From: a virus
Taxonomy: Duplodnaviria; Heunggongvirae; Uroviricota; Caudoviricetes
Virus record (IMG/VR): IMGVR_UViG_2681813264_000007
DNA length: 4,828 nt
Direction: 5' to 3' (one strand)
Shown here: piece after piece, positions 542-4,717 of the stretch
Position numbering within the stretch: the stretch's first letter is position 1
How the letters are laid out: each line of letters starts with the position of its first letter
Notes under the pieces: generated by a model
The model's database searches: none
What the model was told of the DNA's origin: nothing
Seen by the model: the letters and a program-made list of their open reading frames with translations, nothing else
Translations under genes and position numbers: made by a program

Positions 542-1600
542 GTGCGGGTATTACTTCGACCTGTTCTGGTACCGGAACTCGGTCTGGTTATCGTTAAGCC
601 AGGCCGTGAATCAATGTCAGCATTCCATAACGGCAGAATACTGGTGGAGCCGGAACCAAAAAGCATGCGTAATCTGCCGTCCGGGGTCGTTCCTGCCGCT
701 CGCCAGCCGCTGGTGGAAGACAAAACATTGCTGCCGTTTTTCAGTAACGCACGGGTGATTCGTGCTGCTGGTGGTGCTGGTGCATTGTCTGACTGGCTGT
801 TGCGCCATATTAAATCCTGCCAGTGGCCACACGGCGATTATCATCACAGCGAAACCGTCATTCACCGTTATGGTACCGGCGCAATGGTGTTGTGCTGGCA
901 CTGCGACAACCAGCTGCGTGACCAGACATCCGAATCACTCGAGCAACTTGCTCATCAAAACCTGTCAGCATGGATGATTGACGTCATCGGTCACGCAATA
1001 AGCGGTACGCAGGAGCGTGAATTATCTCTGGCTGAATTATCCTGGTGGGCGGTCCGCAATCAGGTGGCGGACGCGCTACCGGAAGCGGTATTACGTCGTT
1101 CGCTGGGGTTGCGTGCGGAAAAAATTCGCTCTGTGTACAGTGAAAGCGACATCATACCGGGAGAGCAGACAGCCACCAGCATACTGAAGCAGCGCACAAA
1201 AAATATTGCGTTACTGCCTCACGTCCACCAGCAACAGAACCCACCACAGGAAAAGACGGTGGTCAGCATTGCCGTTGATCCGGAGTCACCGGCTCAGTAT
1301 CTCCAGCGCCAGAAATCACAACGGGAAGAGATGCCTGTATACACGCGCTGGGTAAAAACGCAGAAATGCATGACGTGTGGCAATCAGGCAGATGATCCGC
1401 ATCACATCATTGGTCATGGACTGGGAGGGATGGGAACAAAGGCTGATGATTTGTTTGTTATTCCGTTATGCCGTAAATGCCGTAACGAACTACATGCCGG
1501 AGTAAAAGATTTTGAAGAGAAACACGGCAGTCAGCTGTTGTTGCTGATTCGTTTTTTAATGCACGCGAGAAATTCGGGTGTTCTGAAGTGGAAAGCATAA
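542..1600 (+). CDS. DUF968 / YdfU-like prophage protein with two NinG-type Cys/His (HNH-like zinc) modules; putative DNA-processing enzyme
   Basis: 352-aa ORF. The C-terminal motif CMTCGNQADDPHHIIGHGLGGMGTKADDLFVIPLCRKCRNELH is characteristic of the NinG/YbcO/DUF968 group, and an N-terminal module CQWPHGDYHHSETVIHRYGTGAMVLCWHCDNQL is related. GTG start at 542 follows GGAGG (533-537); an ATG at 614 is an alternative, so the start is uncertain. Stop TAA 1598-1600 abuts the rusA ATG. Confidence 0.8.
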   Translation: MRVLLRPVLVPELGLVIVKPGRESMSAFHNGRILVEPEPKSMRNLPSGVVPAARQPLVEDKTLLPFFSNARVIRAAGGAGALSDWLLRHIKSCQWPHGDYHHSETVIHRYGTGAMVLCWHCDNQLRDQTSESLEQLAHQNLSAWMIDVIGHAISGTQERELSLAELSWWAVRNQVADALPEAVLRRSLGLRAEKIRSVYSESDIIPGEQTATSILKQRTKNIALLPHVHQQQNPPQEKTVVSIAVDPESPAQYLQRQKSQREEMPVYTRWVKTQKCMTCGNQADDPHHIIGHGLGGMGTKADDLFVIPLCRKCRNELHAGVKDFEEKHGSQLLLLIRFLMHARNSGVLKWKA

Positions 1601-3020: not shown

Positions 3021-3218
3021 ATGCTAAAACAGCAGGATATGACAGAAACCGCCAGAGTGGTGTTTAATGAATTAAGCGTTACCGAACCGGCGACAGTCGG
3101 GGAGATAGCGCAGAATACTTACCTTTCACGCGAACGCTGCCAGTTAATACTGACTCAGCTTGTTATGGCGGGTCTGGCAGATTATCAGTTCGGTTGTTAC
3201 AGACGCCTTCCGCAGTGA
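3021..3218 (+). CDS. Small winged-helix-like DNA-binding protein (65 aa), hypothetical regulator
   Basis: Good SD, AGGA (3011-3014), 6 nt before ATG 3021. The segment TVGEIAQNTYLSRERCQLILTQLVMAGLA has the hydrophobic/Gly pattern of small wHTH regulators (AsnC-N-terminal, PapI/FaeA-like). Family assignment is by pattern only. The stop TGA lies inside a terminator hairpin. Confidence 0.55.
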   Translation: MLKQQDMTETARVVFNELSVTEPATVGEIAQNTYLSRERCQLILTQLVMAGLADYQFGCYRRLPQ

Positions 3219-4467: not shown

Positions 4468-4543
4468 GGCCCTTTAGCTCAGTGGTGAGAGCGAGCGACT
4501 CATAATCGCCAGGTCGCTGGTTCAAATCCAGCAAGGGCCACCA
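4468..4543 (+). tRNA. ileZ: tRNA with CAT anticodon, most likely tRNA-Ile2 (lysidine, AUA-reading; ileX/ileZ-like) rather than tRNA-Met
   Basis: Manual cloverleaf: acceptor GGCCCTT pairs with AAGGGCC; D-arm GCTC/GAGC; anticodon loop CTCATAA (CAT at 4501-4503); T-arm GCTGG-TTCAAAT-CCAGC; discriminator A; encoded CCA. The anticodon arm GCGACTCATAATCGC resembles E. coli ileX. The symbol is by analogy with the ileZ-argN-argO trio of Stx phages and is tentative. Confidence 0.8.
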
Positions 4544-4550
4544 TCACATA

Positions 4551-4627
4551 CCGCCATTAGCTCATCAGGAAAGAGCGCCAGCCTTCGAAGCTGGCTGCGC
4601 GGGGTTCAAGTCCCCGATGGCGGTCCA
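4551..4627 (+). tRNA. argN: tRNA-Arg, anticodon TCG (reads CGA/CGG)
   Basis: Manual cloverleaf: acceptor CCGCCAT pairs with ATGGCGG (C1:G72); D-arm GCTC/GAGC; anticodon stem CCAGC/GCTGG with loop CTTCGAA (TCG at 4585-4587); T-arm CGGGG-TTCAAGT-CCCCG; discriminator T; encoded CCA. The symbol is by positional analogy only. Confidence 0.75.
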
Positions 4628-4640
4628 TTATCTGCATCAT

Positions 4641-4717
4641 GCGTTGTTAGCTCAGCCGGACAGAGCAATTGCCTTCTAAGCAATCGGTCACTGGTTCGAA
4701 TCCAGTACAACGCGCCA
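4641..4717 (+). tRNA. argO: tRNA-Arg, anticodon TCT (reads AGA/AGG; argU-like)
   Basis: Manual cloverleaf: acceptor GCGTTGT pairs with ACAACGC; D-arm GCTC/GAGC; anticodon stem ATTGC/GCAAT with loop CTTCTAA (TCT at 4675-4677); T-arm ACTGG-TTCGAAT-CCAGT; discriminator G; encoded CCA. Resembles E. coli argU. The symbol is by positional analogy only. Confidence 0.8.

Follow-up and report, generated by a model that had tools for sequence, protein, structure and literature searches.

Conserved Cys/His module, probably a degenerate HNH-like finger, in the N-terminal half of a YdfU/PdcB-family (DUF968) prophage protein with a YbcO-type nuclease domain

The DUF968 family (PF06147), which includes YdfU of the Escherichia coli Qin prophage, has been placed together with DUF1364/YbcO in His-Me finger group 7, with YdfU named and RusA and Q noted as neighbours (Jablonska et al., 2017; PMC5714182); the same classification puts NinG/Rap in a separate group, group 24 (PMC5714182). 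DUF968 members from Listeria and Staphylococcus phages have been described as an Orf-like N-terminal domain joined to an HNH domain (Curtis et al., 2014; PMC4118853). In the databases and literature searched, the annotation of YdfU/DUF968 covers only the C-terminal part of the protein, from residue 160 on. Here we analyse the DUF968 gene carried by a 4828-bp stretch of DNA (the window; IMG/VR record IMGVR_UViG_2681813264_000007), which is the late-regulatory (nin-like) region of a lambdoid prophage. The original prediction for this gene was that its product holds two NinG/YbcO-type Cys/His units produced by internal duplication. We find that the C-terminal unit belongs to the YbcO type, and that the N-terminal unit is a conserved module which is probably a degenerate HNH-like finger, unannotated in Pfam, NCBIfam and PHROGs and undescribed in the literature searched. 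The parts of the gene are as follows (window coordinates).

542–1600, + strand: DUF968 gene (YdfU/PdcB family), 352 residues, GTG start, TAA stop, taken from the list of open reading frames (ORFs)
542–1021, + strand: N-terminal domain, residues 1–160; phrog_11007 matches residues 2–135; AlphaFold2 (AF2) model of this domain alone with a predicted local distance difference test score (pLDDT) of 88.7
818–916, + strand: N module, residues 93–125, with a putative structural zinc site; predicted β105–110, β113–118 and α119–125
818–820, 842–844, 893–895 and 902–904, + strand: putative zinc ligands C93, H101, C118 and C121, from alignment column counts
932–1201, + strand: helical middle region, residues 131–220; AF2 helices 131–154, 163–172, 181–188 and 211–219
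1214–1267, + strand: predicted disordered linker, residues 225–242; pLDDT <50
1328–1597, + strand: C-terminal YbcO-type His-Me finger (HNH) domain, residues 263–352
1367–1495, + strand: C module, residues 276–318, from alignment column counts; AF2 β285–288, β306–309 and α311–319
1481–1483, + strand: codon 314, CGT, giving R314; relatives have His (CAT) at this CxxC-H position

Judged by its database matches, the ORF at 542–1600 is an ordinary, widespread member of the YdfU/PdcB (DUF968) prophage family. Pfam DUF968 matches residues 160–344 with an E value of 2.6e-62 (210.3 bits against a cutoff of 27.8), and PHROG 96 (‘HNH endonuclease’) matches the protein over its full length (E = 1e-162). 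HNHc_6 (PF16784; His-Me finger group 19) matches marginally and in the C module only (residues 261–328, E = 1.9e-6, 28.0 bits against a cutoff of 26.6). RefSeq annotates the corresponding 1059-nucleotide coding sequence in a 96.5%-identical E. coli prophage, and the N-terminus M-R/K-x-L-L is kept in diverged homologues. The helical middle region, which from residue 160 on matches the first half of Pfam DUF968, contains the invariant W169, and the linker that follows it varies in length among homologues, with large indels in the alignment. Relatives were found in 175 phage records (lambdoid and Stx phages, SfV/SfII/SfIV, mEp460, Klebsiella and Vibrio phages), where they are annotated as YdfU, as ‘HNH endonuclease’ or as hypothetical. 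Many database proteins (P0132–P0144 and P0160) join an identical YdfU N-terminal segment of ∼150–230 residues to unrelated tails, namely tail-fibre-like repeats, the C-terminus of a Q antiterminator and portal-like or other phage segments; rather than real architectures, they seem to be artefacts of gene calling or chimeric assembly where prophages have recombined.

Sequence and profile matches show the C-terminal domain to be a YbcO-type HNH domain, as is already known. The YbcO family profile aligns to it with an hhalign probability of 92% (E = 6e-7) over 64 columns, from the catalytic PHH through the C-terminus, and DLP12 YbcO aligns to residues 288–317 by BLASTP (E = 5.5e-5). The full-length AlphaFold model (pLDDT 82.7) shows a ββα-metal fold similar to that of solved HNH nucleases, and the solved structure closest to the domain is P1 Ref. 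The predicted zinc ligands are C276, C279, C310 and C313, and these two CxxC pairs would hold a structural zinc ion. The C module also carries an omega-loop (GGMGTK) and a helix of the form C-x-x-C-[H314, here R]-x-x-x-H318. The histidines H287 and H288 (nucleotides 1400–1405) stand at the end of β1, where the catalytic histidine of the His-Me finger/HNH superfamily is found, and each is kept in 19 of the 22 sequences that we aligned; H288 would act as the general base, with H314 and H318 of the helix (18/22 and 19/22, respectively) binding the catalytic metal. A relationship to NinG was assessed with Pfam, single-sequence hhalign and the published classification. Pfam gave no NinG/Rap match, and with hhalign the C module reached only 7% and the N module 0.15%, so that the protein lies outside the NinG/Rap family. 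For the C module ‘YbcO-type’ is thus the correct half of the original label and ‘NinG-type’ the incorrect half, given the 92% profile match to YbcO on one side and the weak hhalign score, the missing Pfam match and the separate published group on the other.

The window copy keeps H318 but has arginine at position 314. The histidine of a CxxC-H motif is a canonical metal ligand of HNH motifs. All 120 close homologues have His at this position and none has Arg, His is also present in 18 of the 22 distant sequences, and R314 is the sole residue of the protein that is absent from all 85 relatives of equal length. The nuclease of this particular prophage copy is therefore probably impaired, unless the substitution is a sequencing error; a single-base error (CAT to CGT) is conceivable, the sequence being evidently a draft with a run of undetermined bases.

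Both of the Cys/His motifs on which the prediction rested are present, in frame in the DUF968 ORF and matching the proposed pattern. The first, CQWPHGDYHHSETVIHRYGTGAMVLCWHCDNQL, comprises residues 93–125 and lies at exactly nucleotides 818–916. The second, CMTCGNQADDPHHIIGHGLGGMGTKADDLFVIPLCRKCRNELH, comprises residues 276–318 at nucleotides 1367–1495, so that the start originally given for it, about 1385, is 18 nucleotides late. When the N-terminal 250 residues were shuffled 200,000 times with their composition preserved, neither the full pattern nor LCxxCxNxL appeared once, whereas DxHH occurred 3055 times. Because the pattern was defined post hoc, conservation is stronger evidence than the shuffling. 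When the two halves are aligned with each other, BLASTP finds only LCWHCDNQL/LCRKCRNEL (nine residues), with a nonsignificant E value of 0.30, as would be expected if the N-terminal pattern had arisen by chance and played no part in structure or function.

Conservation rules against chance. An exhaustive phmmer search with residues 1–159 against 1.84 billion representative sequences returned only 178 relatives, and our 22-sequence alignment consists of 20 full-length homologues chosen among them (25–48% identity), the window protein and a 92%-identical relative. C93, Q94 and C118 are invariant in all 22 sequences and make up three of only ten invariant columns among 352; W119 (21/22), D122 (20/22) and N123 (16/22) are also well kept. 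Position 101 is His in 13, Cys in eight and Asn in one, and position 121 is His in 14 and Cys in eight. This interchange of His and Cys, seen in homologues down to 25% identity including P1 PdcB, alongside two invariant cysteines, points to a structural zinc site, which we propose is formed by four ligands: C93, H/C101, C118 and C/H121. Taken with the high confidence of the AF2 model, these observations make a chance arrangement scarcely credible. The residues of the N module that had been used to match the two halves are poorly conserved, however: D99 is kept in 6/22, H102 in 11/22, G111 in 8/22, G113 in 7/22 and L125 in 8/22.

The sequence comparisons of the N module outside its own family were uniformly negative. 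Searches with the N domain against Pfam (repeated for all 22 members), NCBIfam and the PDB (repeated as a profile) were empty. By hhalign the N module reached a probability of no more than 0.3% with YbcO (as a single sequence and as a family profile of 79 sequences), NinG, Orf or YbcN. Bridging relatives annotated as HNH were sought among 5.8 billion proteins with the N-domain profile, which gave 294 matches; the 120 listed are all of E. coli type (79–100% identity) and carry no HNH Pfam annotation, and none of the listed matches lies outside the family. The N module matched no HNH family, whether by sequence or by profile, and all homology tests were negative. The same comparisons bear on the idea that the N-terminal region is an Orf/NinB-like domain, binding single-stranded DNA, fused to an HNH domain. 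The DUF968 proteins of Gram-positive phages provide a precedent (PMC4118853), and the window protein matches HNHc_6, the family of those proteins. No Orf/NinB-like N-terminal domain is detectable in the window protein, however, and neither its N-terminal nor its middle region shows similarity to Orf or YbcN; we regard this fusion as very improbable.

Structure prediction gives a different answer from these negative sequence tests. The model of the N domain alone has a pLDDT of 91–96 over residues 90–125, and it agrees with the independent full-length model in showing a tight β-hairpin (105–110 and 113–118) followed by a helix (119–125). In the predicted models β2 ends with C118, and C121 sits within the first helical turn; the arrangement in the C module is nearly the same, with C310 the first residue past β2, followed by C313. 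The solved structure most similar to the N module in the structure comparison was P1 Ref (4.1; 65 residues, r.m.s.d. of 3.6 Å), followed by Cap5 (3.9), HNH-Cascade (3.9), GVE2 HNH (3.8) and then TagI, Hpy99I and Cas9. When the N-domain model was searched against the PDB with Foldseek, no match fell below an E value of 1.3. A structural register between the two modules can be proposed from the equivalence of their secondary structures: C93/H101 would correspond to C276/C279, β1 105–110 to β1 285–288, C118/C121 to C310/C313, D122 to H314 and R126 to H318. Both modules have a predicted zinc-type ββα arrangement, and to that extent the original prediction is partly supported, with the C module as the YbcO-type HNH and the N module probably a degenerate HNH-like one. 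A rather unlikely alternative is that a generic finger of the treble-clef or zinc-ribbon kind, with no evolutionary relationship to HNH domains, makes up the N module and is alike only because any zinc knuckle with a hairpin and a helix resembles the HNH scaffold; the protein would then simply be a zinc finger joined to an HNH domain and not a tandem HNH.

The histidine that defines the superfamily is missing from the N module. No conserved His was found on its β1 in the 22 sequences: position 108 is His in only four, and position 110 is Tyr in ten, Arg in three and His in two. Since this catalytic residue is lacking, the most fitting description of the N module is a pseudo-nuclease zinc finger; there is a small chance of a non-canonical site that uses the conserved D122 and N123. 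This bears directly on the proposal of a recent or recognizable internal duplication that yielded two NinG/YbcO-type catalytic units, and so an enzyme with two active sites for branched DNA. The motifs look alike in this sequence, the pattern present in both halves is absent from all of the shuffles, and the ββα arrangement is predicted for both. In this sequence a helix also precedes each module, with a Trp six residues ahead of the first Cys (W87…C93 and W270…C276), and by eye the W87 and W270 columns of the alignment are aromatic in most homologues. Profile–profile alignment of the N and C modules, however, gave a probability below 1% whether run locally, globally or with secondary-structure weighting, and the N-module DxHH and GxG residues are among those not conserved. 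The DYHH/DPHH match is moreover out of register, because DYHH lies in the loop before β1 and supplies a zinc ligand, whereas DPHH lies in β1 and supplies the catalytic base. With no conserved general base in the N module and no similarity to NinG, an internal duplication could not be demonstrated; this scheme as a whole appears improbable, two active sites are unlikely, and the claims that both units are catalytic and of NinG type are largely refuted.

The family probably combines, in our reading, a C-terminal nuclease with an N-terminal HNH-like pseudo-nuclease finger whose domain would position the nuclease. The N module (residues ∼79–160) would hold its zinc site on the same hairpin–helix scaffold as the C module; most likely it is an HNH-like fold that is extremely diverged and no longer has the catalytic histidine. 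The N domain may recognize a DNA structure or a partner protein, and so place the C-terminal nuclease on recombination or replication intermediates, filling the same functional slot next to RusA as YbcO or lambda Rap. By analogy, the protein is most likely a metal-dependent DNA endonuclease acting on such intermediates, conceivably branched DNA, with the N-terminal zinc domain and helical linker used in substrate or partner recognition; this role is suggested by the YbcO slot upstream of rusA, by the corresponding position of NinG/Rap and by P1 Ref being the closest structure to the C domain. A bolder version, in which YdfU/PdcB is an unrecognized tandem His-Me finger whose ancient, now dead N-terminal copy recognizes a DNA structure or a partner, directs the YbcO-type C-terminal nuclease of lambdoid phages to recombination intermediates beside RusA, and is the only conserved functional part in the PdcB clade, where the C-terminal active site is lost too, is a tentative idea that we do not lean towards. 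Genes of the YdfU family are widespread, yet only their C-terminal half is annotated and no function has been assigned. If residues 1–160 are treated as a conserved zinc module that is probably a pseudo-HNH, a concrete domain model results, which names mutants (C93 and C118 versus H288) with which nuclease targeting and a YbcO/Rap-like partnership with RusA could be probed. The practical gain is modest, namely improved annotation for a common prophage gene and a further case of a nuclease fold reused non-catalytically. This is a modestly interesting unannotated domain and not a new kind of system.

Matches to the window are present in 4661 of 5426 complete E. coli genomes; in 1001 of these one match alone spans at least 80% of its length, and the top matches have 93–96% identity. 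The other features of the window are as follows.

182–466, + strand: ORF of 94 residues
1601–1981, + strand: rusA, Holliday junction resolvase (Pfam RusA, E = 2.3e-16)
1978–2797, + strand: Q-type antiterminator gene, cut by a run of N from 2798 (Pfam Antiterm, E = 1.6e-53)
3021–3218, + strand: winged-helix-like ORF of 65 residues
3369–4427, + strand: N6/N4 DNA methyltransferase
4468–4717, + strand: three tandem tRNA genes, downstream of the methyltransferase

The TAA of the DUF968 gene directly abuts the ATG of rusA (1598–1603), and the end of rusA overlaps the beginning of Q within an ATGA (1978–1981), which suggests that DUF968, rusA and Q are translationally coupled. Adjacency of DUF968 and rusA is common but not obligatory, as in the contig of a distant homologue (locus L004, 1522–5020) three genes intervene: an unknown gene of 260 residues, a gene with an ANT antirepressor domain and an ORF of 114 residues. 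The possibility that the protein is a terminase-associated packaging HNH was rejected on position, the gene being in the nin/Q region; in the related prophage locus a separate HNH gene is found at the far end, past the lysis genes. The 3′ part of the Q gene is broken by 42 N at 2798–2839, which marks the assembly behind the window as gapped or masked; the 308-residue Q product given by the ORF finder reads through the Ns, and the orthologue in a related genome has 273 residues. Besides its Antiterm domain, the Q protein has repeated CxxCxGxG motifs at residues ∼100–220 that match the central zinc-finger domain of DnaJ (E = 5.9e-7, under Pfam's threshold). The first tRNA is called tRNA-Met (CAT) by ARAGORN, versus tRNA-Ile for its orthologue in RefSeq, and the second and third are tRNA-Arg (TCG) and tRNA-Arg (TCT); a set of tRNA-Ile, tRNA-Arg and tRNA-Arg presumably resembles the cluster upstream of the toxin or lysis region of Stx-type lambdoid phages.

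Among known systems the window protein is closest to YdfU, with which it shares family, architecture and the neighbours RusA and Q; there is no architectural difference, and the window copy alone has H314R. YbcO (DLP12/phage 82; DUF1364, PF07102; PDB entry 3g27) sits in the same slot in DLP12, immediately upstream of rusA, but is a single domain of 96 residues, as against 352 residues with an N domain and helical linker here, and its first zinc pair is C-x7-C where the C module has CxxC. The window protein does not match PF07102 at E values up to 10, and so is not itself a member of YbcO/DUF1364. P1 Ref, a RecA-dependent HNH nuclease (PDB entry 3plw) with recombination intermediates as substrates, has a disordered basic N-terminus in place of the predicted folded zinc domain, and Pfam RecA_dep_nuc is not matched by the window protein. 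Lambda NinG/Rap (PF05766), a branch-specific endonuclease of the HNH superfamily whose gene lies in the equivalent nin region, with the replication genes on one side and Q on the other, is likely to be a functional analogue. PdcB of phages P1 and P7 is a full-length homologue, with ∼25% identity over residues 32–348 of the window protein; pdcB lies directly upstream of lpa and not of rusA/Q (loci L006/L007, 4001–5044; phage P1 AF234172, 88955–89875) and is non-essential and of unknown function (PMC10695390; PMC10067587). Three PdcB-like proteins (P0195, P0257 and P0227, the last 69% identical to P1 PdcB) keep both Cys pairs of the C module but lack its HH, GGMGTK loop, H314 and H318. They retain all ligands of the N module, and both of their modules look non-catalytic. 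The loss of the C-module active site with retention of the N ligands suggests, from sequence, that the N domain has a conserved function that does not depend on catalysis. Two families unrelated to the window protein, Smad MH1 and the ENPP nuclease-like domain, offer an analogy of mechanism only: they are inactive His-Me fingers that have lost the catalytic His and kept zinc and a binding role (PMC5714182).
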